DNA of 32,000 nucleotides from NCBI RefSeq assembly GCF_900079115.1, contig NZ_LT549890.1, positions 1,650,001 through 1,682,000 on the forward strand, in the 5' to 3' direction. This stretch comes from Saccharolobus solfataricus. Lineage in GTDB: Archaea; Thermoproteota; Thermoprotei_A; Sulfolobales; Sulfolobaceae. Both the position numbers and the translations under genes were made by a program. The notes beneath the pieces are model-generated. The model saw only the letters and a program-made list of their open reading frames with translations. It was not told where the DNA came from and searched no databases. Shown here one piece after another: positions 10,438-29,685 of the stretch (within the stretch, counting starts at the first letter, position 1; every line of letters begins with the position of its first letter).

Positions 10438-10590
10438 GGGCTATTCAAGTGCCTTTTGCGAATCGTAATTTCTAAATAATCCTGTTGTAAATTGGTAATC
10501 GTGTTTCTCTGCTAATTAGTCACCTTCATTTAGTTAATTTTGTAGCAATTTTTGAAATGAAATGAATTCGCAATGGATAACTGAATCGCC
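10438..10590 (+). mobile_element. MITE copy 1 (SM-type, same family as 15491, 17936, 21884, 29084)
   Basis: Its termini GGGCTATTCAAGTGCCTTTTGCGAAT... and ...GAATTCGCAATGGATAACTGAATCGCC are alignable with the other four copies. It is slightly shorter, and no clear target duplication is seen. Confidence 0.6.
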
Positions 10591-10744
10591 TGGAAAACTC
10601 TACAAATTCACACAGTACTTGGCAGATCATTGATAAACTATTCTAGAATATTTTATAATATTAGTAGTAAAGTACGTTTATAATACTAAAACTTTATAAT
10701 TCCAGAAAAATGCTCCATAGGAATGGAATAATATACAAAGCAAT

Positions 10745-12182
10745 CAGTTGTGTTTCACCAATTTTACTAGAAATGATGTAATTTCTATGGTGGGGAAAAT
10801 ATCGAGTTATGGTTGTGAAAATCGGCTTATTTCAACATGATTATCAAAAAATTTTTAGATTAAACGAGAAGCATGGTTAAAAAGGAGTTTGTATATAGAG
10901 GGTAATATCATCTGTTTAGTATTATCAAGCGGGGAGGGGAGGTCTAGGGAGGAGGTGAACAGGAAAGGGTTAAAGCGAGGGACTCCATGACTCCGTTATG
11001 CAAGTTTATGAAACGAGATTCAAAACGGAGTTGAAGTCCCTCGCCAGTTATTTCATCGTCAATAATCTTAACGTTATCTCCCAAGAGTTGGACACGAGGA
11101 TCGCGGACGCAGCTCCGTTCCTGTTGACAGGGAACAGGGGAAAGGAGTACTTGAAGGTCGTTAGGGAAGGAGAGAAGGTGATGAGTCAAGGGGAGAGGAG
11201 CTTCAAGTTCTACCCTCACGTGAAAGTTGAGGGAGAGACTACAATCGTTGCAGTGGACGAGACCGCGATAACCGTGGGGGAGAAGGAGTCGAGGAAGGTG
11301 GAAGGATTTCAACTCTACAACGGGAAGAGGAAGGGAGTTAAGTTGAGGTCCGTGGACTTGGTGTTCCCCTTGAGGTTGTCCCTCCTCGAGGAGATAGCTG
11401 ACTTGAGAAGCGATACTCCCTCCCAGTTCCTGATGAGGGCCGTGAGCGAAGTTGCTCAGCACCTCAAGATAGACTACGTTGTTGCTGACGCGGGTTTCCT
11501 GAACTTGAAGGTAATCAAGGAGATGCCTGTGAAGACCGTGGTAGGAGGTAAGACCAACCTGAAGGGCTTCAAGGAACTCTCCAACGTCTCTCTAACCGAG
11601 AAGAAATGCGAGGTAAATGACAGGGTTTACGTTGCGTATAGGGTCCTGAAGTACAATGACCTTTACTACTATGAAGTGATATACGTCAAGGAGAAACCCA
11701 GGCACTTCATCTTCGTTACCAACTTCAATGGAGATCCCTACAAGCTAGCTGAGCTCTACAGGTTGAGATGGCAGAGCGAAGAGGGCTTCAAGGTCAGGAA
11801 GGCCAGGATAAGGTACGTGAGGAAGTTAACCAACAAGATCTTCCTCTACCTCTATTACACTGTCCTAGATTCAGTGTGGAACCTCGTGAATTACCTCCTC
11901 TTCAACTTCAAGTCCACGAAAAGGAAGCCTCTCTCCTTCGACTCCTTCGTCAGGCTTCTCTAACTTCCTCGGCGTGCAGAGGACGCTCTGCACACCGTTC
12001 TAACCACGTGATAAAAATTCAGATTATCTCCCTTTAATCTGAATCTACACGTTATGTTTATTGCAAATAATGTTAATATGCTATATTTCACTATAATATC
12101 ACTATCTTTCTCTATATCAATTCCCTTTTGAAAGAACTAACACAATATCTTTCAAGTGAGATAATTTGGTGAAACACAACTG
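10745..12182 (+). mobile_element. IS element, ISC1439-type (IS4/ISH-like DDE), 1438 bp
   Basis: Terminal inverted repeats CAGTTGTGTTTCACCAA at 10745 and, reverse-complemented, at 12182. It is flanked by a perfect 9-bp direct repeat CAAAGCAAT (10736-10744 and 12183-12191). The core is GC-rich in an AT-rich host. The name is inferred from size. Confidence 0.9.
10998..11963 (+). CDS. DDE transposase (IS4-like)
   Basis: 321 aa. Candidate catalytic residues lie in VAVDET, VVADAGF and YRLRWQSEEGFKVRK; the last matches the Y-2-R-3-E-6-K signature. Confidence 0.9.
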   Translation: MQVYETRFKTELKSLASYFIVNNLNVISQELDTRIADAAPFLLTGNRGKEYLKVVREGEKVMSQGERSFKFYPHVKVEGETTIVAVDETAITVGEKESRKVEGFQLYNGKRKGVKLRSVDLVFPLRLSLLEEIADLRSDTPSQFLMRAVSEVAQHLKIDYVVADAGFLNLKVIKEMPVKTVVGGKTNLKGFKELSNVSLTEKKCEVNDRVYVAYRVLKYNDLYYYEVIYVKEKPRHFIFVTNFNGDPYKLAELYRLRWQSEEGFKVRKARIRYVRKLTNKIFLYLYYTVLDSVWNLVNYLLFNFKSTKRKPLSFDSFVRLL

Positions 12183-12321: not shown

Positions 12322-13116
12322 CTATTTTCGTGCTTCTATTACACCATTAATTGAAAGATCAAATGGTAATTCATTGTGTTTATAGATCCTTATTTTAGTA
12401 AAACCGTAACTTCGTAATTTTTCAATCAAATAAGTAACATCTCCTAACTTTTTATTGTCAATAACAGTATTGTATTCTATCCTAACTATAGAAAATTTCT
12501 GAATAGATTTATCGTTAATAACGCGGAATTCGCCCCCCTTTATATCTAAATCTAGGATATCAGGTTGAGAGATGTTAAACTCTTCTAAAACAGTAGATAT
12601 GCTTACACTTCTTACTCTTATTCTATCTTTATAACTATCGAAGTAGGAAGTTCCTCCATTACATCTGGTATTAGGAAATTCTATTTCACCATCTTCTCCA
12701 ATCGCCCAATTTCTTAATACTACTCTACTAGCTAATTCTGGATTTAGTTTAAGATTAGTAAGAGCAATATTGTAACAGTCCAGTTGGGGCTCAAAGGCGT
12801 AAACATAAGCTCCCCGTTTTGCATAATATAATGCAGTCTCACCAACGTAAGCTCCAGCTTGAATTATTTTTTTATTTTCTAAATTATAATCTATAAAATG
12901 TATATCATACAAAAAGGTTTCAGAAAAAATTACTGGATCGAATCCCTTTATTGAGAATTTTATTCCAGATGGCGTAATTAAAATATTATATTTTTCATCA
13001 AATTTCCAATTACTTCCAATATCTACACCATATTTATAAGAGAAAAGATAAAGATTTAAAATATCATGAAAGTTATCCCTATCTGTTTTAATACTGAATC
13101 CATTAGGAAAAACCAA
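12322..13116 (-). CDS. FkbM-family SAM-dependent methyltransferase
   Basis: IQAGAYVGETALYYAKRGAYVYAFEP matches the FkbM/Methyltransf_21 core (D/xGAxxG ... xFEP). The start codon is TTG, and the upstream in-frame region has no ATG. Confidence 0.75.
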   Translation of the reverse strand: MVFPNGFSIKTDRDNFHDILNLYLFSYKYGVDIGSNWKFDEKYNILITPSGIKFSIKGFDPVIFSETFLYDIHFIDYNLENKKIIQAGAYVGETALYYAKRGAYVYAFEPQLDCYNIALTNLKLNPELASRVVLRNWAIGEDGEIEFPNTRCNGGTSYFDSYKDRIRVRSVSISTVLEEFNISQPDILDLDIKGGEFRVINDKSIQKFSIVRIEYNTVIDNKKLGDVTYLIEKLRSYGFTKIRIYKHNELPFDLSINGVIEARK

Positions 13117-13392
13117 TTTACCTCTTTCTCTTAGAAAAGTTAAAAAATTATTAAACCTATTTCTTTTACTATGTAATAGGAAGAAATTGAAATATGTTAA
13201 ATAATCACGTCAGTATGGAGATCTCATTCTTCTGAGATAAATGAGGATATTACTTAAATTGAATTTGATCGGTATTATTCAAATAGCATGATATATATTT
13301 TGTGAAAATAATCGTTAATAAATCAGTTTTACACCATAGAAGTTAAATATTAGGAATTAATTTCACGTAGCTGGAAGGAGGTGCATAGGGTT

Positions 13393-14560
13393 AGCTGGAG
13401 TTTAGGGGAATGGCGTCTTCACTTCACGGAACGCATGTTCTTGTTCCACTCTTACCTCCCGATCGAGGAGGTTCGAGAGGGAGACCGAGAACTCCCACAA
13501 CTTGACCTTCCTCCAAGAGCGGATCAAGAACCAGACATTCAAGAGAAGATAGGAAAGCAGAACGAGAACCAATTCCTTCCTCACGTCACAAGTCCTAGTC
13601 TTGATTCTGAACTCCTCAAGGGAGCGGAAGGCGTTCTCTATCCCCCACCTCTCCCTGTACATCTCGGCAAGGACTATGGCATCGTGAAGGTCGATCTCCC
13701 TCCTCACGAGGAAGGCAATAATCTTGCCGTCTTCCTTCCTCAGGATAATGAGATAAGCTCCACTCCCATGTCTCACGCAGAGAAATCCAGTATATCTAAC
13801 TCCGCCAAAACTCACATCCACATCTTGCAACATCCCCTTGTACTTCTTGTACATCTGGGCCTTGGCAGATATGACGAAGTCCAAGCCCAACTCCAAGAGG
13901 TATCTAATCACTTCGTTCACCGCGAACTCCCTGTCCGCGAAGACCATGACGAGCCTCAGCTTGTCCTCCTCCAACTCCTTCACGATTACCTCCATCACCG
14001 CCTTGAAACCTTCAGCTACGTTCTTCACGGTCACTGGGATCACGTCCAGGAAGCTCCTCGTCCTCCCCAGGAGGAAGATCGCAGCTTGAACCAGTCCCCA
14101 CGACGTCCCCTTAGTTGGCTTTATCCTACTCAAGAAACTCTTGTCAGCGTGGTATTGAGGTATGGCATGGAAGTCCACTGCTACCCTCCTGTTCCTGACT
14201 CCCCTTAACGTCATCCTCCCCATCTTCCTCAACGCATCCCTCACGTCCTCAACTTGAACCGCGTTCAACTTTCTCAACGCTCTTCTCCCATCTTTCCCCA
14301 ACCTGCTCAAGTAGCTCCCACTCGCCTTAAGCAAGGCACTGAGGAGTTCCTCAGGGAAAAGTATTTTAGTGAGGACCGAGTAAATTATCTTGAGGCGGAC
14401 CTGGCGAAGTCCCGGTTGAACTTCGCCGGTTTAGTTGTATTCTCATGCTTCATATGTTCAAGTCCGCCCTCGTATATACAAACTTTTTCTACAGAAATTC
14501 TCATCCTCTCAACTTTTTCTGTATTTCATTCATCTCGTTTTTTTACGAGAAAAAAGAGAT
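13393..14560 (-). mobile_element. GC-rich IS element (DDE; ISC1217/ISC1225 size class), boundaries approximate
   Basis: The GC-rich core 13406-14428 is bounded by GTTTAG at 13400-13405 and 14429-14434. rmlB-paralog homology stops near 13392 and resumes near 14565. I could not identify convincing terminal inverted repeats. Confidence 0.5.
13402..14334 (-). CDS. DDE transposase
   Basis: 310 aa with a TTG start; the frame stays open upstream to 14430. It has VFADREF and the C-terminal YRERWGIENAFRSL (YRxRWxIE) motif typical of IS4/IS5-type transposases. Confidence 0.85.
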   Translation of the reverse strand: MLKASGSYLSRLGKDGRRALRKLNAVQVEDVRDALRKMGRMTLRGVRNRRVAVDFHAIPQYHADKSFLSRIKPTKGTSWGLVQAAIFLLGRTRSFLDVIPVTVKNVAEGFKAVMEVIVKELEEDKLRLVMVFADREFAVNEVIRYLLELGLDFVISAKAQMYKKYKGMLQDVDVSFGGVRYTGFLCVRHGSGAYLIILRKEDGKIIAFLVRREIDLHDAIVLAEMYRERWGIENAFRSLEEFRIKTRTCDVRKELVLVLLSYLLLNVWFLIRSWRKVKLWEFSVSLSNLLDREVRVEQEHAFREVKTPFP

Positions 14561-15490
14561 TCCCATACTGACGTGGGATAGGTCCAATTTACAAACCTCA
14601 AGATTTTGTCTCAACGAACGTCTTTGGGACTGTAAATCGTATTAGAGGCTGCTAAAGAATGGTATAACTTTAAGTATGTTCATACTCTCCACTGATGAAG
14701 TATACGGAAGTGAGTGGCCAAGACGAGAACTCATTCCGTAAAACCCATCATCTCCTTATTAGGCGCATCTTTTAAAAAAGCGTCAGCTTTGATCTATTCG
14801 TAAAATCCTACATTAGAACGTTATAATGTTGAGGCATTAATAGTTAGACCTTCAATAACTATGGACCTAAGACAATTTCCAGAGAAATTTATTCCAAAAG
14901 GCTATAATTCGGTACAATTCTAGGAATTTATGTACCAATTTATTTAGTAAGGGAACAAGAGAGGGATTGGATTTACGTAGGAGGATACCTGCTAGGGTAA
15001 TTTCGATTTGATCGAAGTGCAGAGTGGAGAGGTGAAGTGTTATAATATTCCGAGGGATAGGGTTTAAGAACATTCAATTAATAATGGACTGTGAGAGGGT
15101 AATCAAAAAAGAGATTAAAGTTAAGTACGTTTCGGATAGGACCTGGACATGATAGAAGATATTGCATGATAATATACTAACACTAAATTACACTACAACT
15201 CCCCTAAGGGAGGATTAAGGAAAACGTATGATTGCGTACGGCTAATAATAATTGGTGGTGGAGTCGCTAGTTAATGATGAATTTTTCAAATCTGATGAAC
15301 CCTGGAAGGACCTTACGAAGATAAAAGAATACTAACGCACACCACTTTTGAACCCTTTTAACTTCCCCTCTCTAACCAAATAGCAACGGCAATTTTTCTG
15401 GAGAATTGTTCTCATGACCTTATTTAAGTTGTTTAAATATGAATTATTATAATATTGATGATAGTTATTCGATTTTACTCAAATTGGATA

Positions 15491-15666
15491 GGGCGATTCG
15501 GTTATCGATCGCCCGAATTCATTTTATTTTTAAAAATGTTACGAAATTAACTAAATGAAGATCGAAGTAACTGGCGGACATACATGATTACTAATTGTTA
15601 GCATTTTTTATTAAACAATTATATTTAAAATTACAATTCACCAAAGAAAATCCCGACGAATCGCCC
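15491..15666 (-). mobile_element. MITE copy 2 (diverged, about 176 bp)
   Basis: GGGCGATTCGG...GAATTCATTTTATT...ACGAAATTAACTAAATGAAG...CGACGAATCGCCC is alignable with copy 4 in the same orientation. It carries an extra palindromic segment near one end. Confidence 0.6.
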
Positions 15667-15699
15667 TGACTTGTATGAAAGTATTCTCCCGACAAATTG

Positions 15700-15782
15700 T
15701 TTAGCTAAATTCTAGAATAAGATACAAGATTTAGCTAACTTATTCTAATAAAATGAATTTAGCTAACTTACTTCTAATTTTA
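15700..15782. repeat. three direct TTTAGCTAA(A/C)TT repeats with an embedded 9-bp inverted repeat
   Basis: TTTAGCTAA begins at 15700, 15730 and 15758. TAGAATAAG and CTTATTCTA form a 9-bp inverted pair between the first two copies. Confidence 0.6.
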
Positions 15783-15939
15783 TCCTTCCCAATAATCTTT
15801 TAATTGTCCATTAACGAAGATTCTTTGGATATATAAAGTAGACACATTATCTGATAACAAAAAGATTTAAATTAGAATTTTATCTTTTCTTTCTTCACAT
15901 AAGGGATAATTTTACCCATCTTTCTTTTTTCTCATACTC

Positions 15940-16324
15940 TTAATTAATTTCGTCAATATTTTCTTCTTGTACGCCGGGTAACAGTTCGTTTAATAAAGTC
16001 TCGGATAACCAACCCTTATAGTCTTCATCTCGACCTATAACAATTAGAGGTTATAAACACCTATCATCTTCGCATTTTTGGATATATGGGGGATTTGCTT
16101 CCGTATTTGGGGACTCCTTGGCGATATCAGTCTGGTCTTTAATCTTTTATAACCTTCTTCGTTCTCCATCAAATAATTAAGCATACATTACCTTCTCCTC
16201 TCGGTCACTTTTTTCTTTTATAGTTTCAATTATATACTTTTTCATAGAAACTGAAATTTTTTCTCATCATACCCAAAATTCCTTTTAATAGCTCTTTTTC
16301 AGTTTGACCTTCTACAATTATAGC
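15940..16324 (-). pseudogene. degenerate Toprim-like ORF (possible DUF4276/OLD-type nuclease partner of the ATPase)
   Basis: The reverse strand reads (PS)[22 protein letters not shown].., resembling the N-terminal xxVEGxTE motif of Toprim/DUF4276-type proteins. After several stops and frame changes it reads ..KMIGVYNL* / IVIGRDEDYKGWLSETLLNELLPG.. No ATG start. The call rests on short motifs only. Confidence 0.3.
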
Positions 16325-16325
16325 A

Positions 16326-16652
16326 GATGGGGGTCAAAGGGGGCGGAAAACTTCGCCTCTTTGAGGCGGAGATGGATAGCCCCCTTTGTAGAAAAGTTTA
16401 AAAATTCTGACATAGATACACTTTTGATGACAGTTACTGACGGAGTAAGCGTCACCGAGGCACCTCGGTTAAAGCGAGGGTCTATGAGGTACGCCTCTGC
16501 TCCAGACAATGATGGCACAGACGTTAAGTACCATGCGGGGTGGGAGCCACCCTTAGTGCCTGTGGAGCTCCACCCTCTACCAGTTCTCTGGCAAGGTGGG
16601 GCTGTGAAGCAGGAAGCTCCCTCCTTCAGGAGGGGGTAGCTCACTTTACTAC
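16326..16652 (+). ncRNA. candidate structured RNA of unknown class, or a novel GC-rich insertion
   Basis: A GC-rich island in AT-rich DNA, open in several frames on both strands with no protein-like translation. It contains many perfect hairpins. These include a 10-bp stem (16335-16344/16379-16388) enclosing CGCCUC-UUU-GAGGCG. There is a UACG tetraloop hairpin (16486-16497) and a GUGA (GNRA) hairpin (16601-16610). Other stems are GGGUGG-GAG-CCACCC (16538-16552) and a 9-bp stem with a UUCA loop (16617-16636). A UGAUGA...CUGA K-loop-like pair lies at 16425-16440. A closing helix pairs 16388-16397 with 16643-16652. The tetraloop identities favour the + strand. Confidence 0.35.
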
Positions 16653-16670
16653 ACTCACTATATATCATCT

Positions 16671-17618
16671 CTATATGTATCCCACCCAACTTAATGGTTC
16701 GTCTATTTCACTTATTTCTGAAAGTTTGTACTCCCTTGACGTACCTCTCGTAGATAAATATATTATTTTGGCATTACTATCATCAAAGACTTTCGTCATC
16801 ATCTTTATAACCTCATTCGAGTGTGTTGTGAAGACAATTTGTGAATTTTTGCCTTTATCTTTCATTACGTTAAAAATCTCTAAGAGTAAGTCGGGGTGAA
16901 GAGAGTTCTCAATCTCGTCTATTAGAAGAAGATTAGAATATGTTAGGCTATCAATGATTAACTCCTTTTTTAGTAAACCTCTTCCAATTACATATGCTGG
17001 CTTAGTTTCGTTTTCCTTAACATAATGCACTTTATATAAACCCATCTCATCTGGCAAAATTTCAAAATCTGACTTAACTCCTTTTTTCTTTGCAGAACCT
17101 ATTATCCTTTCTGGATAGTCATAAAAATCGAAATAAACTGATAGATACACTGGTAAAAAGTGTTCCATAATTTTATGTCTCTTGATTAACTTAACTTCTG
17201 GTACACGTATAGGAACAGAGATTGTTTCCTTAGCTAGGATTCCACTCGATAAAGATATTGAGGCTATCTTCTCATCTTTTTTAGACTCATCTTTTAATAA
17301 ATAAATATCAATTTTTTCCTTCTCTTTTCTTCTGAACGATAATTTAATTCTCTCTCCGCCATGAAGTCCTAATTCAACTTCAGAATCTGTTAACGATAAA
17401 AATGCTGAAATCATGTCACCTCTGCTGTTAAATGCGTAAATCATTAATGAACTAATATCACTTTCGCTATAGTCAGAGAGGAAAAGCGAGGAGAAAAATA
17501 ATGCTTCTAAAAATGAAGTTTTTCCGGTTCCGTTCCTACCTATTATAGCATTAATTCTCCCCAAATTAACATTAAGTTTCAGACCCCTAAAATTGCCAAT
17601 CGAAATATTTTCAATCAT
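16671..17618 (-). CDS. ABC/SMC-like ATPase (AAA_21/AAA_15-type)
   Basis: 315 aa. Walker A GRNGTGKTSFLEAL, Walker B LLLIDEIENSLHP, and an H-loop-like FTTHS. This architecture is typical of the ATPase subunit of two-gene abortive-infection/OLD-like modules. Confidence 0.8.
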   Translation of the reverse strand: MIENISIGNFRGLKLNVNLGRINAIIGRNGTGKTSFLEALFFSSLFLSDYSESDISSLMIYAFNSRGDMISAFLSLTDSEVELGLHGGERIKLSFRRKEKEKIDIYLLKDESKKDEKIASISLSSGILAKETISVPIRVPEVKLIKRHKIMEHFLPVYLSVYFDFYDYPERIIGSAKKKGVKSDFEILPDEMGLYKVHYVKENETKPAYVIGRGLLKKELIIDSLTYSNLLLIDEIENSLHPDLLLEIFNVMKDKGKNSQIVFTTHSNEVIKMMTKVFDDSNAKIIYLSTRGTSREYKLSEISEIDEPLSWVGYI

Positions 17619-17935
17619 TACTAATGATTTATTTTCTTGCTATAAAAGCATAATGCCTAAAGCTGGGGGTCGGACTTTCATTGAGATTTCATGAATTTGT
17701 ATTCAACCCCTCGTCCTCATACCCCTTATTTTCCTCCCCATGCCGTCTACGGGACTAACTCCCTTCAAGGACATGAGGAGTTTCATCAGGTACCTTCCTC
17801 CCCCTCACATTGCTCACAGAGTTCATTGTGGCACCCTCTAACTTAATGTTAGCATGAAAGTTTATAAATTTTAATGCTTCTAACATTCATATTAAATGAC
17901 ATGAACTTCACGACTTATCGGAAACTGCTGACAAC

Positions 17936-18095
17936 GGCGATTCAAGTCTCTTTTATGTACTGCAATTTCTAGATAATACGTTATAAAAACTTAACGTTAG
18001 TAATCGCGTTCCTGCTAGTTAGTCGCCTTCATTTAGTTAATTTCGTAACAATATTCGAAATAAAGTGAATTCGCAAAAGAAGCCTGAATTGTCCC
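17936..18095 (+). mobile_element. MITE copy 3
   Basis: GGCGATTCAAGTCTC...TAGTCGCCTTCATTTAGTTAATTTCGTAAC...GTGAATTCGCAAAAGAAGCCTGAATTGTCCC is collinear with copies 1 and 5. Confidence 0.65.
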
Positions 18096-18140
18096 GAGTC
18101 CCTAATATTGCGAGGAGAGGATGTGATAACTGCAGTTAAT

Positions 18141-18531
18141 TTATTTTACCCAAATCCTTTCTATTCCATTAATTTTATCGAAATCTGAATCCTCACTTAC
18201 TATCTTTTTTATTGAATTATTTATCATTACAGCTACGTGGAAAGCATCAGACGGTTTTAAAGTCTTACTTATCATTATCCCCTTTGCTTTTTCATAATCA
18301 TGAGAGTTGATTGGCAGTATAATTGTATAAGGAAGTATTATCTTATCTAAGAAATCAATTGTATCCTCAAATTTTACATTATACTTCTTTTTTGATAATG
18401 TAAATAACCTCATCTATAATCAAAGGGTCGATAGATAACCTATCTTCATTCAATAACTTAAGATAAAATTTCTCCACTTCCTAAACTCCTAAATTTAAGT
18501 ATATTAAGAAATTAGCATCGAGGAAAATCAA
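18141..18531 (-). pseudogene. vapC: PIN-domain toxin VapC, inactivated (in-frame TAG plus frameshift)
   Basis: A TTG start overlaps the vapB stop (TTGA). The sequence reads (M)IFLDANFLIYLNLGV-TAG-EVEKFYLKLLNEDRLSIDPLIIDEVIYIIKKEV*. A 1-nt frame change in the A6 run then leads into the listed 90-aa ORF (..LSKKKYNVKFEDTIDFL...SEDSDFDKI), which is the C-terminal half of the PIN domain. Confidence 0.7.
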
Positions 18532-18788
18532 TTATCGAATTCCTCCTCTAAACTAACGTTAATTAAATCTCCAAGTTTAGCCTTATTTGCATATGAGATT
18601 TTAGCACTATGTTCCTCCATCTTCTTTTTTAAGTCATCAAAACTTACCTTTCTTTCAGGCTCAAGAACAATTTTACCATCTTCGACTCTTAGGATTAATA
18701 TATCTCCCTCCTTTATTTCAAGAAGATCCCTAACAGTCTTAGGGATTATTATATATCCTTTCTTTCCAACTTCAATCTTTAGGGTCAA
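18528..18788 (-). CDS. vapB: AbrB/SpoVT-type antitoxin VapB
   Basis: 86 aa with a TTG start. KKGYIIIPKTVRDLLEIKEGDILILRVEDGKIVLEP is a swapped-hairpin AbrB-like fold motif. Confidence 0.8.
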   Translation of the reverse strand: MTLKIEVGKKGYIIIPKTVRDLLEIKEGDILILRVEDGKIVLEPERKVSFDDLKKKMEEHSAKISYANKAKLGDLINVSLEEEFDN

Positions 18789-18839
18789 ACTCTACTCACT
18801 TGAGCTAAACTAGCCAAACTAATATATAAACTTCTCATT

Positions 18840-20278
18840 CAGTGGTGTTTCACCAAATTATTTCATTTGAAAGATATAATATTAGTCCTTTCAAAAAGAG
18901 ATTGATATAGAGAAAAACAATAAAATTATTATGAAACATAACATGTTAAAATAATTTGCAAAAAATATAGCGTACAATTCTAATAATAAGAGGAGAATTC
19001 TGAATTTTTCTCACGTGGTGAAAACGACGTGCATAGTCTCCTCTGAACACCGAGAAAGTTAGAGAAGCTTGACGAATGAATCGAAGGACAAAACCTTCTT
19101 ACACGTGGACTTGAAGTTAAAGAGAAGATGATTCACTAGATTCCACGCAGAATCCAGAACCGTGTAATAGAGGAACAAGAAGATCTTATTACTCAACTTC
19201 CTAACATACCTTATCCTTGCCTTCCTAACCTTAAAACCCTCCTCAACTTGCCACCTCAACCTATAGAGTTCAGCCAGTTCATAGGGATCTCCCTCGAAGT
19301 TCGTTACGAACATGAAGTGCCTCGGCTTCCCCTTAACGTAAACCACATCGTAATAATAAAGCCCTTCAAATTTCAAGACCCTATACGCAACGTAAACCCT
19401 GTCCTTAACCTCGTATCTCTTCTCAACTAATGGAACGTTAGATAGTTCCTTGAATCCCTTCAAGTTCGACTTTCCTCTCACAATGGTCTTCACGGGCATT
19501 TCCTTGATGACCCCTAGGTTCAAGAATCCGGCGTCAGCTACAACGTAATCTATTTCCATGTATTGGCTTACTTCCCTCACGCTCCTGAGTAGGAACTGTG
19601 ATGGACTGTCGCTTCTCAAATCTGCTACCTCCACTAGGAGGGGTAACCTTAAGGGATATACGAGGTCCAAGGATCTCATCTTTACTCCTTTTCTCTTCCA
19701 GTTGTAGAGTAGAAAGCCCTCTGCTTTTTCTTGTTCCTTTTCTCCCACGGTTAATCCGGTCTCATCTACAGCGACTACGTTGATCTCTCCCTTTACTTCT
19801 CTGTAGATTGGGTAGAACTTGAAGGTTCTCTGACCTTTACTAATTACTTTCTCGCCTCGTCTTACTACCTTCAAGTAGTATTTTCCTCTGTTTCCGGTTA
19901 GCAAGGATGGTGCTGCTTTCACTATTTCCGGGTCTAGATCTTGAGAGATAACGTTAATATTGTTTGTTGCTAAAGTTATAGCGAGGGACTTCAGCTCCGT
20001 TTTGGGTAATATCATGGTTTGCATAACGGAGTTATGGAGTCCCTCGCTTTAACCTTTTCTTGTTCATCTCGTCCTTCCACCTACTTTCCTCTATTGATAA
20101 TACTAGACAAATGGTATTACTCTTTATATATAAACTCGTTTTCTGTTAGTTTCTTCAACAAATATGAAAATTTTTTGCTTCTTGTGTTGAAATAAGCCGA
20201 TTTTTCTAACTCCGCTCTGATATTTTTCTCTTCCATAGAAATTGTATCATTTTGAGTAAAATTGGTGAAACACCACTG
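18840..20278 (-). mobile_element. IS element, ISC1439-type, 1439 bp (divergent second copy)
   Basis: Terminal inverted repeats CAGTGGTGTTTCACCAA at 18840 and, reverse-complemented, at 20278. It is flanked by a perfect 9-bp direct repeat CTTCTCATT (18831-18839 and 20279-20287). Both end sequences match the corresponding ends of the copy at 10745-12182. Confidence 0.9.
19059..20024 (-). CDS. DDE transposase (IS4-like)
   Basis: 321 aa, collinear with the ORF at 10998-11963 at roughly three quarters identity by eye. It has the same VAVDET, VVADAGF and YRLRWQVEEGFKVRK motifs. Confidence 0.9.
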   Translation of the reverse strand: MQTMILPKTELKSLAITLATNNINVISQDLDPEIVKAAPSLLTGNRGKYYLKVVRRGEKVISKGQRTFKFYPIYREVKGEINVVAVDETGLTVGEKEQEKAEGFLLYNWKRKGVKMRSLDLVYPLRLPLLVEVADLRSDSPSQFLLRSVREVSQYMEIDYVVADAGFLNLGVIKEMPVKTIVRGKSNLKGFKELSNVPLVEKRYEVKDRVYVAYRVLKFEGLYYYDVVYVKGKPRHFMFVTNFEGDPYELAELYRLRWQVEEGFKVRKARIRYVRKLSNKIFLFLYYTVLDSAWNLVNHLLFNFKSTCKKVLSFDSFVKLL

Positions 20279-21185
20279 CTTCTCATTCAATAAGTGTTGT
20301 AGGTCAACCCTTGAATTATAAAACTCAGATAGTACTTTACGTAAATTCACCTTAAATCATTTAAACCTTAAATCTAACATAGATTCTCTTCAAGAAGATT
20401 TAAATAATCGCAAATACTTCAAGCGTATATAGTATAAATATTCCTTAAATAAATCCTACATTGGAAAAATTAAACGTTATATATTATACGTTATTCTCAA
20501 GAAACTACTACGATAGTGTTTGATGAGTTCTGGACTTACCTTCATGTTAAGCATAGGAAGAGGATGAAGGATTTATGGGTTTGCTAGATGGGATACTTTT
20601 ATTGGGTCTGGGGATAGGAATTATAAGACCTTCATAGGGTTTCACAATATATTAATCCTAAGCTCTTAGGCTTCACCAAAGTGATGGGCAAAAACCATTT
20701 ATCCTTCTTTGCCCCGTTAGCGGGAAAACCCCAATCGGTGGGTAACCTATATATAGGTTAATTAGCTGGGGAGAGTAATACGCCTCAGCTGGGGAAAATG
20801 GTCAAAAAGGTAACTGAAGCCAAGTCTTCGGTCTAGGGCGTGACAAGCCCCTTATATAAAACATATTAGTCAGATCTGCGTAATACAGATCTGAATGGGG
20901 TGTAGGTGTTACCACTAGTATTTTGGAAAAGTTCTTAGACTATGATCTAGTGGTATATCCTTTGCCTAAAGCTATAAACTTTCTGAAAGCACTAACGCTA
21001 ATGAGGCGGAGATGGAAGAACGAGTTTATCCGTGACTCTGATGAAGCCCAAGGGCTGAGGATTAAATATCGTGAAATCCTATGAAGCACAAACCCCAGAT
21101 TGACAATCTTCAATTGGATAGATTCACTGGCGACTATGAGGTTTTTTGGATGAAAGCTTAAATTGCGGAATTCAAGGTTTTATAT

Positions 21186-21644: not shown

Positions 21645-21883
21645 CTATATTAATTATTATCTAATTACTTCTGACCCCTCTCCGTCCTAAACGGTTAGAC
21701 CCAAAATCATCTTACAAATATAAATTCAGCTAGGATTATCATATTATTTCTTCAAATATAAGAAAATTTTCTCTATTTTTCTTATTATCAATAATCTAAA
21801 ATTTAATTATATGTATCTGATGATATAAATAAAATTGGATTTCTTTGAATTTAATGTCATTTTTCATATATGTTCATACTCAA

Positions 21884-22047
21884 GGGCAATTCACGCTTCT
21901 TTTGCGAATTCACTTTATTTCGAATATTGCTACGAAATTAACTAAACGAAGGTGACTAGCTAGCAGAGACGCACGATTACCAGTATTAACATTTTTATAA
22001 ACACATTATTTACAAATCACAATTCGCAAAGGAAACCAGAATCGCCC
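21884..22047 (-). mobile_element. MITE copy 4, 164 bp, with an 8-bp target duplication
   Basis: Ends GGGCAATTCACGCTTCTTTTGCGAATTC... and ...AATTCGCAAAGGAAACCAGAATCGCCC form an imperfect terminal inverted repeat of about 30 bp. It is flanked by ATACTCAA at 21876-21883 and 22048-22055. From memory, the 164-bp size and 8-bp duplication fit the Sulfolobus SM4 MITE class. Confidence 0.85.
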
Positions 22048-22315
22048 ATACTCAATTAACACTTTTTATATTAGCTATTATAAAAAATATTACTATAGGA
22101 TTGAAATTTTCTATAAATTTTGGTATAATTGAGTAAAATAATCATGTAATGCATGATAATTGGTTATTAACGGAAAGCTATTATTTTTAATAATACGATT
22201 TTGGGTCTACCGATAAGGGGCGAGGCTTGCCTTTCCTTTGTCAGTCTTTCACTTTCTAATCCCGTAATTATATTCAGATTAAACGGCTAGTTATAAAAAC
22301 CTCTAGTCTGATAAT

Positions 22316-24712: not shown

Positions 24713-24896
24713 TTAGTAGTTTTAGGAAATTCCCTTATTATAAAAAGTCAAAATATTTATCCATGTATTTATAAATATCTTTCATTGTACTTCTTAATAT
24801 TATAGCTTATCAATAAACATTTCTCATCTAACCGGAAAGATTTATTATATATTTTTAATGTAACGTAAAAGTGTAACGATTTTCCTATAAACGCTA
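24713..24896 (+). repeat. 184-bp direct repeat, copy 1
   Basis: Identical to 25640-25823 except for one C/T difference near the 3' end. AT-rich and non-coding. Confidence 0.95.
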
Positions 24897-25639: not shown

Positions 25640-25823
25640 TTAGTAGTTTTAGGAAATTCCCTTATTATAAAAAGTCAAAATATTTATCCATGTATTTATA
25701 AATATCTTTCATTGTACTTCTTAATATTATAGCTTATCAATAAACATTTCTCATCTAACCGGAAAGATTTATTATATATTTTTAATGTAACGTAAAAGTG
25801 TAACGATTTTCCTATAAATGCTA
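25640..25823 (+). repeat. 184-bp direct repeat, copy 2
   Basis: See copy 1. Its 3' end abuts the GC-rich truncated transposase fragment. Confidence 0.95.
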
Positions 25824-26268
25824 CCTGGAGAGGGCCAGGAAGCTGCTCTCCCTGGGGAGAACCAAGAGGAGGTTCGAGGGAAGGTGGACCAAGAAGAGAG
25901 GGGTCTCGCACTACGGGCTCAAGGCAGTGGCCATGATCTTCGTCTCCCTCTTCGTGAGGTCCATCACGGTGAAGCCAGCCAACTTCTCGGACAAGAGGTT
26001 CAAGTCACCGCTCAAGGGGATTAAGATCGCGGACAAGGGATTCTCTCCCTCCCCGACACAGCTCATAGCGCGGGAGAAGCCCTTCACTACCCTGAGGGCC
26101 CACGTGGAGTTCTTCGGCACCTACCTGAACGCGTTCTGGAGGCCCTACGGGACCACGACCTGGAGGAACGACGTCTTCCTTCACGTCCTGGGAGTGATCT
26201 ACAACATCAAGATGTTCCTCGCGATCCAACGGAGGACTCCTCCAGGACGTAGAGCCGTTCAGCTCTGA
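25822..26268 (+). pseudogene. 5'-truncated IS5-like DDE transposase fragment
   Basis: The frame is open from 25822. It reads YLERARKLLSLGRTKRRFEGRWTKKRGVSHYGLKAVAMIF..TVKPANFSD..IADKGFS..RAHVEFFGTYLNAFWRPYG...VLGVIYNI, with catalytic-core motifs (ANxxD, ADKGF, RxxVExxF) but no N-terminal DNA-binding part. The GC-rich block starts abruptly at 25824. Confidence 0.6.
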
Positions 26269-27160
26269 GACGCGCCTCCTCGCGATCAGGCAACGCTATG
26301 CGCGATAGGTAAATCCTCTCGTCTTGATATTTTTCCATTATAAAGTTTTTCTCGGTTATCCGGGTTTCACCCTTCTGGCAATATTAATATTTATCATTCT
26401 GTTTATCTATTCGTTCAGATAATTACATTCCGGACACTCTCACGTAAGGGATCTATAGTCTTTTTCTTAATAGGCACTACATGCTCCGCCTCTAACAAAG
26501 TGACCGTAGCAGATCGGGATTCTCTGCCACCGTAGGAGCTGCAAAGGGGACTAGAAGGGATTATCAAACTTAGTGGGGAGATGCTGGAAAATGGATGTGC
26601 TTAGGACACTACTAGTTCAACCCAGCATCTCCCCAAAACATATTAGACAAAAAAAAAAGAATTATTAAAGATAAATGGATGTGCTTAGGACACTAAAAAG
26701 GAGGATCAGAAAGCTGATCGAAAAGAAGCCCAAGAACCTAAACGAAACCAAAGCAAGAGGAATATTACTATACTTGAAAGGAATGAACACTAGAAAAATA
26801 GCCAAGATACTACAAGTACACTTGAGCACAGTTTACAGATGGATCAACCAATTCGAGAAAGAAGGAGAGAAATGCCTATGCTACAAGAAGAGAAAAGGAA
26901 GAAACAAGAAGGTAGACGAAAAGGAGATAAAAGTAGAAGAACTTCAAGGTAAAAACATATGGGAAGCAAAGGCTTACATAGAGGAGAAGTTTCACGTTAA
27001 ATTAAGCTATGTAACAGCTTGGAGAATAGCTAGAAAGAGATTGAAAATCCCCTACATAAAACCATATAACAAGAAGAGGCCCTTTAACGCAGATAACATC
27101 TTGAGGGAGAGGTTAAAGGGTGTTATTATACTTCGTCAGACTTTAAAGGGCAAGAAAACT

Positions 27161-28988: not shown

Positions 28989-29083
28989 TCATGTTGTAAC
29001 CTTATTCTCTAATTTGTAATAAAATTATATCGTATCGACAGTTCTCTCAATTACTTGTTTTTAGAGGTAGCTAATAGAAATAA

Positions 29084-29248
29084 GGGCGATTTAAGTCTCC
29101 TTTGCGAATTGCAATTTGTGAATAATATAGTTGTAAAAATGTTAATATTGGTAGTCGTGCATCTCTACTAGTTAGTTATCTTCATTTAGTTTATTTCATA
29201 GCAATCTTTAAAATAAAGTGAATTCGCAAAAGAAGCCCGAATCTACCC
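29084..29248 (+). mobile_element. MITE copy 5, 165 bp
   Basis: GGGCGATTTAAGTCTCCTTTGCGAATTGCAATTT...AAAGTGAATTCGCAAAAGAAGCCCGAATCTACCC, with terminal inverted repeats of about 30 bp. It is inserted in the conserved leader upstream of the 29686 gene. Confidence 0.8.
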
Positions 29249-29685
29249 TTAACTCTGTGTGAAAGTGCAACAGATCCATGAAGCACAATATTGGACCCAG
29301 TGACGTTGTCAAAGTTAGGTAGGATCGAATAATTATCATAACTATAATATTTCATATCATACTATTATACGCTAAATTCAATCATAAAGAACAATATAAT
29401 ATATAATAAAGATCGAATAGAGATAATTGTACAGATTCACAATAAAATTTGCCGAAATCGTAACTAAACAATTAAACAAACCAATCAATAAGCGAAGACC
29501 CTAATCCTAGTCAACAAGACCTCAAGGGCATGAAAGAGGTCAAGGAAGAAGACTTATATAGGTGGCTAATAGTAAGCTTAAGATTCACCGTAAGATTTGG
29601 TACCAAACGCACAAATTCTTCCATTTAGTGTAACCTATTTGGATGAGAGTTTGATTTATAAGGTCTTATGTCCATATAAACATAT

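Follow-up and report, generated by a model that had tools for sequence, protein, structure and literature searches.

A GC-rich hairpin island in Saccharolobus solfataricus as a probable short, tnpB-less ISC1316-type element with an omega RNA scaffold

The stretch of DNA considered here (hereafter, the window) comprises 32,000 nucleotides (nt) of the genome of Saccharolobus solfataricus (assembly GCF_900079115.1, contig NZ_LT549890.1, positions 1,650,001 to 1,682,000, forward strand), and our subject is a GC-rich, hairpin-dense island within it, situated beside the gene for an ABC/OLD-type ATPase and inside the gene for the Toprim-like partner of this ATPase. An initial annotation, made from the sequence alone, had placed the island at 16318-16676 and had described it as an unclassified structured RNA or a novel insertion. 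Many of the properties it listed are real: the GC content is 0.475-0.525 over 16300-16700 versus 0.31-0.40 in the flanks, open reading frames (ORFs) overlap the island on both strands (16304-16639 and 16540-16899 on the + strand, 16318-16689 on the - strand), all of the hairpins named are present in the sequence, and both strands fold far below dinucleotide shuffles (z of -5.79 and -6.09, with 0 of 100 shuffles as good). The inability to fit the island to the archaeal signal recognition particle (SRP) RNA or RNase P RNA was also borne out: neither these nor any other Rfam family matched at or near the gathering score within 16150-16850. At gathering thresholds, Rfam returned nothing relevant at the island in a search of the whole window, and at E <= 10 nothing above 16.5 bits (E 3-8) was seen in 16150-16850, the matches being to unrelated small nucleolar RNA and small RNA (sRNA) models. 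We conclude that the island is very probably a 323-bp, gene-less derivative of an ISC1316-type transposon that keeps the transposon ends and an omega RNA scaffold and belongs to a propagating short family. The features of the interrupted locus, in window coordinates, are the following.

16671-17618, - strand: gene for the ABC/OLD-type ATPase SSO1737, 315 amino acids (aa), intact, the upstream gene of the module, outside the element
16645-16668, - strand: 5' piece of the partner gene, ATG at 16668-16666 plus codons 2-8 (MIYSECSK), 2 nt after the ATPase stop codon
16322-16644, + strand: the whole element, 323 bp, read as a non-autonomous, ISC1316-derived member of the IS200/IS605 family of the SMN/PATE-like kind, delimited by empty/filled comparison
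16640-16644, + strand: right-end terminus CUCAC (UUCAC in high-GC copies), with TCAC as the presumed TnpA cleavage motif
16318-16321, + strand: target or transposon-adjacent motif TTAT, directly 5' of the left end
15735-16321, - strand: 3' piece of the partner gene, Toprim-like (IIVEGQTE...LIIDGDEEG...), frameshifted here, open in P2 and three other genomes

The flagged segment is an insertion into the partner gene. At the orthologous locus L010, which has 96% nucleotide identity, the site is empty, the island being absent and the ATPase gene being followed 2 nt later by the partner gene, and at the more distant locus L013 the two genes likewise lie 2 nt apart without the island. With the slash marking the junction, here and below, the empty site on the + strand reads ...CTACGATTAT / TTTATCAC... 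(in short form, ATTAT / TTTAT), and the filled site reads ...CTACAATTAT / AGCAGATGGGGG...GGGGGTAGCTCAC / TTTACTAC... (in short form, ATTAT / AGCAG...CTCAC / TTTAC). Aligned with the empty site of L010, the filled site contains exactly 323 bp more; nothing of the target is duplicated, the extra DNA follows TTAT on its 3' side, and it separates codon 8 from codon 9 of a 198-aa partner gene. The true unit is thus 16322-16644 rather than the somewhat longer segment initially delimited. When the 323 bp are deleted in silico from the P2 genome, the outcome is an intact 198-aa ORF with 94% identity to the partner of L010. Four complete S. solfataricus genomes carry an identical element at this site; its sense strand is the + strand of the window, antisense to both the ATPase and the partner genes. 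No inverted repeat relates its ends, AGCAGATGGGGG... and ...GGGGGTAGCTCAC, and a repeat scan of 16200-16800 listed no inverted pair linking the two. A classical miniature inverted-repeat transposable element (MITE), with inverted repeats and a target duplication, was considered and rejected, as the apparent terminal pairing of UAUAGAGAUG with CAUCUGCUAUA uses flank that is already present in the empty site. The suspicion of the initial annotation that an insertion had split a two-gene module is therefore borne out, as is its description of the position, the island lying 26 nt from the ATPase stop codon and adjoining AIIVEGQTE. The partner ORF had been thought to lack a start codon; its ATG lies on the other side of the insertion.

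The origin of the insertion is indicated by both of its ends. When the translations of the island were compared with the protein database, they matched C-terminal fragments of TnpB (PF07282), P0020 and P0021 among them, and the last ~35 codons of the + strand frame are the TnpB C-terminal tail, contrary to the earlier impression that no translation resembled protein. At the nucleotide level, the right ~110 nt (16533-16644) share 80-87% identity with the 3' ends of genes annotated as TnpB, those compared being from pNOB8, pHGQ25, Acidianus two-tailed virus (ATV), two metagenomic elements (L014 and L015) and L053, and the left ~70-85 nt (16327-16402) share 74-87% with the sequence that directly precedes tnpB in pHGQ25, pNOB8, and L053. 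The last of these is a resident TnpB element of S. solfataricus of ~1,327 bp that matches both ends of the island (80% and 87%), with a right end reading GTAGCTCAC / (GGGGTAGCTCAC /) and a 5' flank reading TTTTAT /. Its protein, P0073, is 78% identical to the pHGQ25 protein over 93% of the latter, which in turn scores 254 bits on the NCBIfam model NF040570 (guided_TnpB) and whose closest relatives (P0022 and P0023) carry the name 'ISC1316 family'. Resident TnpBs of the ISC1316 family thus exist in S. solfataricus (P0073, P0080). No tnpA gene was found inside the window. Three features of the parent are recognizable in the left half of the island and across its length.

16336-16387, + strand: left-end nested hairpin, outer stem 16336-16344 with 16379-16387, inner stem 16351-16358 with 16365-16371
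16390-16404, + strand: BRE-like (B recognition element) purine-rich stretch and TATA-like box TTTAAAAA (16397-16404), the presumed former tnpB promoter
16427-16639, + strand: relic mini-ORF of 70 codons, from the tnpB start ATG at 16427-16429 to the stop TAG at 16637-16639

Subterminal hairpins are present at both ends, the nested hairpin at the left and, at the right, a hairpin at 16616-16637 (H10 below) that ends 7 nt before the terminus. In an RNAalifold consensus of 16 left ends, three of them from outside the short family (those upstream of the annotated tnpB in pHGQ25 and pNOB8, and that of a short element of Sulfolobus tengchongensis spindle-shaped virus 4, STSV4), the left-end hairpin has 16 pairs, seven with compensatory changes, and we presume that it is the structure recognized by TnpA on single-stranded DNA. 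Lacking inverted repeats and a target duplication, located 3' of a conserved tetranucleotide, ending in TCAC and possessing covarying hairpins at its ends, the element is best read as an IS200/IS605 derivative, and it displays all the sequence features that define this family. Nearly all of tnpB has been lost relative to the ISC1316-type parent, an element of the tnpB-only sort. The parts retained are the left end and the nested hairpin in it, the presumed former promoter of tnpB together with the start codon, an omega RNA scaffold of ~220 nt, and the right end with CUCAC. The mini-ORF joins the tnpB start codon to degenerate codons of the zinc-ribbon region and then to the TnpB C-terminal tail (16535-16636); in the same frame, a 111-aa ORF covers the element (16304-16639) and carries the annotation 'hypothetical protein SSO1736', and in other strains the 70-aa ORF, too, is listed as a hypothetical protein.

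The element has many relatives. An internal 21-mer, GACGGRGTAAGCGTCACCGAG, is present in every short copy retrieved. A scan with this 21-mer of one genome per species (185,579 species) matched Metallosphaera yellowstonensis once and one high-GC metagenome-assembled genome (MAG) twice, and a looser pattern run over hot-spring metagenomes gave 28 loci. At least 20 further tnpB-less copies of the same plan were found at unrelated loci (in Metallosphaera, the high-GC MAG and hot-spring metagenomes); tnpB was found inside none of the short copies, the flanks differ between copies, and no further copy was found inside the window. The plan, common to essentially all complete copies, consists of TTAT or TTTAT, the left-end hairpin, a TTTAAA box, ATG, a conserved middle, and the right end, with the left end at about -65, the TATA box at about -45 and the right end at +206 to +233 relative to the 21-mer. 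An exact TTTAAA is located 42-47 nt upstream of the 21-mer in 19 of the 33 copies scanned, the box occupying the same alignment columns. The 5' motif, 6-9 nt upstream of a G-run, is TTAT (often TTTAT) in 16 and TTAC in 4 of 20 related copies, as read by eye from the printed flanks, and all copies end in ...GTAG(C/T)TCAC followed by unrelated sequence, the right terminus of the element itself reading ...GUAGCUCAC. The high-GC copies retain a relic ...DIDYDASLNILRGSGWEPP, which is the RuvC-III motif of TnpB, and have lost all four zinc-ribbon cysteines, from which it follows that the middle is degenerate 3' coding sequence of tnpB, and this architecture points to a deletion of tnpB that predates the spread of the short family. 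In many copies the frame from the ATG to the TnpB stop codon is shifted or interrupted and the nucleotides are still conserved, indicating that selection does not act on a protein.

Several other sequences touch upon the family. A fragment of STSV4 (L023, OP999031.1) contains, at ~170-545, another short tnpB-less element with a left-end hairpin of the same type and a TATA box, a different right half, and four overlapping ORFs annotated as 'hypothetical protein'. The same left end is also present in pHVE14 (L022, ~2490-2553), where the sequence after it is unannotated and starts in the manner of a tnpB gene. In addition, five contigs from different S. solfataricus samples (L005-L009), one of a draft genome and four assembled from short reads, all stop inside the element, at 16580-16629, which may be due to k-mers shared with ISC1316 copies or to poor coverage of GC-rich hairpins.

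What is conserved among the copies is a fold. The RNAalifold consensus of 16 distinct short copies contains ten helices, and its main parts, with the position expected for a guide, are as follows.

16442-16503, + strand: omega RNA 5' domain, with H2 (16442-47 with 16498-503), H3 (16449-56 with 16488-94) and H4 (16459-67 with 16475-82)
16537-16637, + strand: omega RNA 3' domain, outer helices H6 (16537-43 with 16547-53) and H7 (16559-63 with 16609-13)
Same domain, + strand: inner and terminal helices, H8 (16567-74 with 16595-602) and H9 within H7, and H10 (16616-24 with 16629-37)
16645-16664, + strand: would-be guide flank UUUACUACACUCACUAUAUA, assigned from its place beside the right end

The 5' domain consists of three stacked helices, contains the 21-mer, and shows compensatory changes from A-U to G-C or the reverse (columns 25/82) and from U-A to C-G or the reverse (columns 46/58). 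Across the 16 copies 97.5% of cells are paired in the consensus, ten pairs have changes on both sides, a count reached by 3 of 500 shuffles, and the covariation score is 0.218 versus 0.154 for shuffles (none of 500 reaches 0.218) and at most 0.095 for slid controls. Five tnpB-linked 3' ends also contain helices H6-H10, again with compensatory changes. On the + strand many of the G-U pairs do not vary, and read from the - strand they would be A-C mismatches; together these patterns suggest that the conserved entity is an RNA of the + strand, for which the TTTAAAAA box would serve as the promoter. The 3' end of this RNA can be placed by comparison with the S. islandicus TnpB7, in which a conserved UUCAC immediately precedes the guide, and a scaffold of 116-166 nt of the right-end element RNA (reRNA) is sufficient (PMC11043419). 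The right-end boundary is common to the tnpB-linked copies, the TnpB tail codons lying inside the scaffold. The end in UUCAC (CUCAC here) agrees with the TnpB7 rule and suggests that the island carries a complete omega RNA/reRNA scaffold, with the flank UUUACUACACUCACUA... in the place of the guide. These first 16 nt of the would-be guide occur once in the window; on the - strand, 16645-16664 is the region of codons 1-8 of the partner gene.

Seen against this fold, the hairpins picked out initially fare unevenly. The nested hairpin, noted at 16335-16388, is real and conserved, and is the left-end hairpin; only some of the hairpins are conserved across the 16 related copies, this one and the terminal hairpin 16616-16637 being kept. 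The hairpin with a UNCG loop (16486-16497) is broken in many copies (GUGG..CCUC), its bases being used in the longer-range helix H3. The GNRA mini-hairpin has no place in the consensus structure, and its stem letters vary in other copies without visible compensation. The UGAUGA...CUGA pair, likened to an L7Ae-binding K-loop, is not conserved (UAAUGG, GCGAUA in the other copies), and the idea of L7Ae binding finds no support. Finally, the long-range helix proposed to close the domain (16388-97 with 16643-52) pairs the element with flank past its end and so cannot belong to the conserved fold. The RNA is structured and covarying, as had been surmised; it is neither unclassified nor novel if, as we think, it is the omega RNA/reRNA scaffold of an ISC1316-type element.

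Other explanations deserve consideration. A full-length ISC1316 copy could have inserted at this site and lost tnpB by random deletion, leaving an inert, one-off fossil, and such a history would be compatible with the match of both ends to the resident full-length element, with the apparently single copy in S. solfataricus, and with a small extra internal deletion that sets the window copy apart from the other short copies. We regard it as unlikely, given that the same deletion architecture (four cysteines lost, invariant 21-mer) is found in at least 20 copies at unrelated loci, suggesting that the short form arose before spreading. Less probable again is that the island is an independent gene, between two others, for a structural or regulatory RNA of a new class, for example one bound by L7Ae. 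Its absence at L010, the orthologous locus with 96% identity, the splitting of an ORF, the presence at both ends of transposon ends common to tnpB elements, a K-loop motif that is not conserved and a closing helix that runs beyond the element boundary all argue against this, even though the strong fold, the covarying pairs, the conserved TATA box and the lack of an Rfam match are what such a gene would present.

The restored reading frame invites comparison with an intron, either of the bulge-helix-bulge or of an IStron-like self-splicing type, in which case the partner protein would still be made: the interruption is within a protein-coding gene and the frame returns when exactly 323 nt are removed. 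However, scarless restoration is equally expected from IS200/IS605 excision, the conserved RNA, with its G-U pairs, is antisense to the mRNA, no ribozyme is matched in Rfam, and the best bulge-helix-bulge candidate at the junctions forms 9 of 12 pairs, a score attained by 87% of random junction pairs. As the hBHBh' motif at the junctions is not above chance, the archaeal bulge-helix-bulge intron was rejected, and we give very little credence to an intron of either type. It is just as improbable that the island is a small protein gene, be it SSO1736 with its 111 aa or the 70-aa ORF of other strains. This view can draw on the annotation as a hypothetical protein, on the first ~25 codons, which are intact in most copies, and on some lineage differences that fall at third codon positions, but beyond these ~25 codons many copies have a frameshift or a stop with the nucleotides still conserved, the variable positions are compensatory helix partners, and the ORF itself is a fusion of relic tnpB codons.

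A number of observations weigh against the reading of the island as a short omega RNA element, or limit it. The 5' domain (16442-16503) and its 21-mer are not alignable with the tnpB-carrying elements, and the role of this domain in TnpB binding is uncertain for that reason. Relative to the high-GC copies, ~25-30 nt, the relic DxDYNASLNIL codons, are missing from the window copy, and this loss could impair its RNA. S. solfataricus appears to have this one copy only, as the 21-mer found no other copy in the representative genome of the species (a scan that did not return this locus itself, presumably because it is masked), and recent activity in this host is accordingly unproven. Among published circular RNA coordinates, none falls at P2 1.5751-1.5755 Mb. 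Use of the promoter, loading by TnpB and mobilisation by TnpA are predictions. The likeness to the SMN elements, to which we return below, is one of descriptive features (size, presumed mobilisation of the IS200/IS605 type and, for SMN2, the non-inverted-repeat character).

As to the interrupted genes, SSO1737 (AAK41935.1) is identical in P2 (AE006641.1, ~1.5755 Mb) and several other complete genomes, and the ATPase matches the Pfam families AAA_15 and AAA_21 and the PADLOC models AbiLi, AriA, PDC-M38A, and MAD3. A fused OLD-type ATPase-Toprim gene split by the island can be dismissed, as each homologue of the ATPase is a stand-alone protein of ~300-316 aa and the partner has a gene of its own, 2 nt downstream. 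At L010 and L013 the partner gene encodes 195-211 aa, beginning MMECAKVFVEGNTE, and the 5' arrangement in the window is that of L010 (TAG AG ATG...). The insertion parts the partner gene from its start codon, with the catalytic-looking glutamate of IIVEGQTE located downstream of the break. The partner gene matched no Pfam or NCBIfam family, and its PADLOC matches are weak (mad4, E 1e-4; PDC-M38B, E 4e-3). We consider a defence-like module of an ATPase and a Toprim-like nuclease plausible.

The partner gene had also been taken for decayed. The frameshifts are mostly confined to the present record, and in P2 the remaining 190 codons of the gene are still intact. Compared with four complete S. 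solfataricus genomes, positions 14450-16278 show ~140 small differences (84 extra bases, 30 missing and ~33 substitutions), and outside this stretch there is one difference from L003 over 12617-14400 and 100% identity over 16279-18841. A neighbouring gene, for an epimerase/dehydratase (350 aa in P2), is likewise disrupted by the indel-rich stretch, in this record only, and the stretch looks like low-quality sequence in the source assembly rather than biology.

The wider surroundings are rich in mobile DNA. Two insertion sequence (IS) copies, at 18841-20279 and 10742-12182, are 76% identical, each with a 321-aa DDE_Tnp_1 transposase, and a third DDE transposase ORF is located at 13402-14334. 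Neither P2 nor any other of the S. solfataricus genomes compared contains the copy at 18841-20279, which suggests a strain-specific insertion. These IS copies and the third transposase ORF account for the other GC-rich islands in the window; GC-richness, offered initially as a signature of RNA genes, marks an RNA here and mobile DNA as well. A repeat of ~135-170 nt is present in five copies that are 74-83% identical (10438-10573, 15514-15649, 17933-18094, 21882-22050, and 29081-29250) and probably belongs to one of the classical MITE families of Sulfolobus (SM-type). A 184-nt direct repeat with 99.5% identity (24713-24896 and 25640-25823) flanks ~740 bp, adjoins a very GC-rich segment (25800-26400, GC 0.51-0.57) and may mark the ends of another mobile element. 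The sole gathering-level Rfam match in the window is the Sso133 sRNA (56.5 bits, E 1e-8) at 17734-17796 on the - strand, ~115 nt upstream of the ATPase start codon. Also upstream of the ATPase, at 18141-18788 on the - strand, is a pair of an AbrB/MazE-type antitoxin and a PIN-domain toxin (86 aa and 90 aa), suggesting that the region is a cluster of defence or toxin-antitoxin-like modules and mobile elements.

How such an element might live can be outlined from the biology of IS200/IS605 elements and TnpB (Meers et al., 2023, PMC10055086; PMC11043419). It would move by single-strand 'peel-and-paste' transposition, a Y1 TnpA supplied in trans excising and inserting the top strand through recognition of both end hairpins and of TTAT and TCAC. 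Transcription of the + strand from its own TATA box would produce an omega RNA with the 3' flank as its guide, and a resident TnpB of the ISC1316 family would load this RNA in trans. After excision, TnpB would cut the vacant donor site (TTAT followed by the guide, that is, TTAT followed by TTTACTACACTCACTA), and recombination provoked by the cut would restore the element. Scarless excision would yield ...AATTAT / TTTACTAC..., regenerating the partner gene, and inactivation of this gene would therefore be only reversible. A further possibility, and one we hold to be rather doubtful, is that the short elements form a separate group of wide distribution that parasitizes ISC1316-type transposons with a guide RNA only, each copy having its own promoter and a remodelled GC-rich 5' domain; the invariant 21-mer of this domain is common to Saccharolobus, Metallosphaera, and the high-GC lineage and is absent from the protein-coding parents. 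The remodelled domain may then help in competing for the resident TnpB (for homing and retention) and for TnpA (for movement), and, were all this true, scarless excision would make the S. solfataricus copy a reversible off-switch for the defence-like ATPase/Toprim module.

In practical terms, a concrete identity can now be proposed in place of the 'hypothetical protein' SSO1736 and of an apparent mystery RNA, and a module of an ATPase and a Toprim-like protein, probably serving defence, is seen to have been knocked out in S. solfataricus by an element expected to excise without a scar. An archaeal family of tnpB-less omega RNA elements with a conserved promoter would be added to those known, and as natural guide RNAs predicted to depend on TnpB in trans, such elements would be relevant to genome editing with thermostable TnpB in Sulfolobales. 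There is also a word of caution here, that GC-rich, hairpin-dense islands in the AT-rich genomes of thermophiles can be transposon ends and not housekeeping RNA genes.

The closest known elements are the SMN elements. SMN1, of 320 bp, from S. islandicus (REN1H1), is said to be mobilised by the IS200/IS605 transposase of ISC1733, according to secondary accounts (Berkner and Lipps, 2007, as cited in PMC3718332 and PMC3839810), and SMN2, a non-inverted-repeat element of pMGB1 that interrupts plrA, is said in the same two sources to be mobilised by an IS200 transposase. With SMN1 our element shares a similar size (323 versus 320 bp), a host group at the genus level, and the lack of a protein gene of its own; like SMN2, it interrupts a gene, carries small spurious ORFs and is without terminal inverted repeats, and mobilisation by an IS200/IS605 transposase is presumed for all three. 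The guide-RNA content was unrecognised when the SMN elements were described. As the 21-mer is absent from the representative genome of S. islandicus, the present family is probably a different, sister family of the SMN type.

Another parallel is with the PATE elements, which 'often encode omega RNAs' needing TnpB in trans (Meers et al., 2023, PMC10055086). PATE-like elements (Dyall-Smith, 2011; PMC10055086) and the Sulfolobales element alike consist of left and right ends and an omega RNA, without tnpA or tnpB, and both should need TnpA and TnpB in trans. Unlike the bacterial PATE-like elements, however, the one described here is of an archaeal lineage and has its own conserved TATA box, and its 5' RNA domain is remodelled, highly conserved and unalignable with the coding region of the parent tnpB. 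With the tnpB-carrying ISC1316 elements and the reRNA of the S. islandicus TnpB7 (PMC11043419) it has in common the left-end hairpin, a 3' RNA domain with 80-87% identity, the terminal (U/C)UCAC followed by the guide, and insertion beside a T-rich motif, whereas the tnpB gene is absent (323 bp versus ~1.3 kb for the tnpB-carrying relatives) and the adjacent motif is TTAT or TTAC rather than the TTTAA reported for TnpB7 (PMC11043419). The haloarchaeal sotRNAs (RF02656 and RF02657) similarly derive from the 3' ends of IS200/IS605 tnpB genes and are thus omega RNAs, but they are sense-overlapping transcripts within full tnpB genes in a different archaeal phylum, and cmscan at E <= 10 found no similarity between them and the island. 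Overall, the element appears to fit the SMN/PATE-like kind in every testable respect; it is a new instance of a kind already described, and in this sense the finding is largely ordinary, the modest added value being a conserved promoter of its own and a remodelled 5' RNA domain without a counterpart in the tnpB-carrying relatives.

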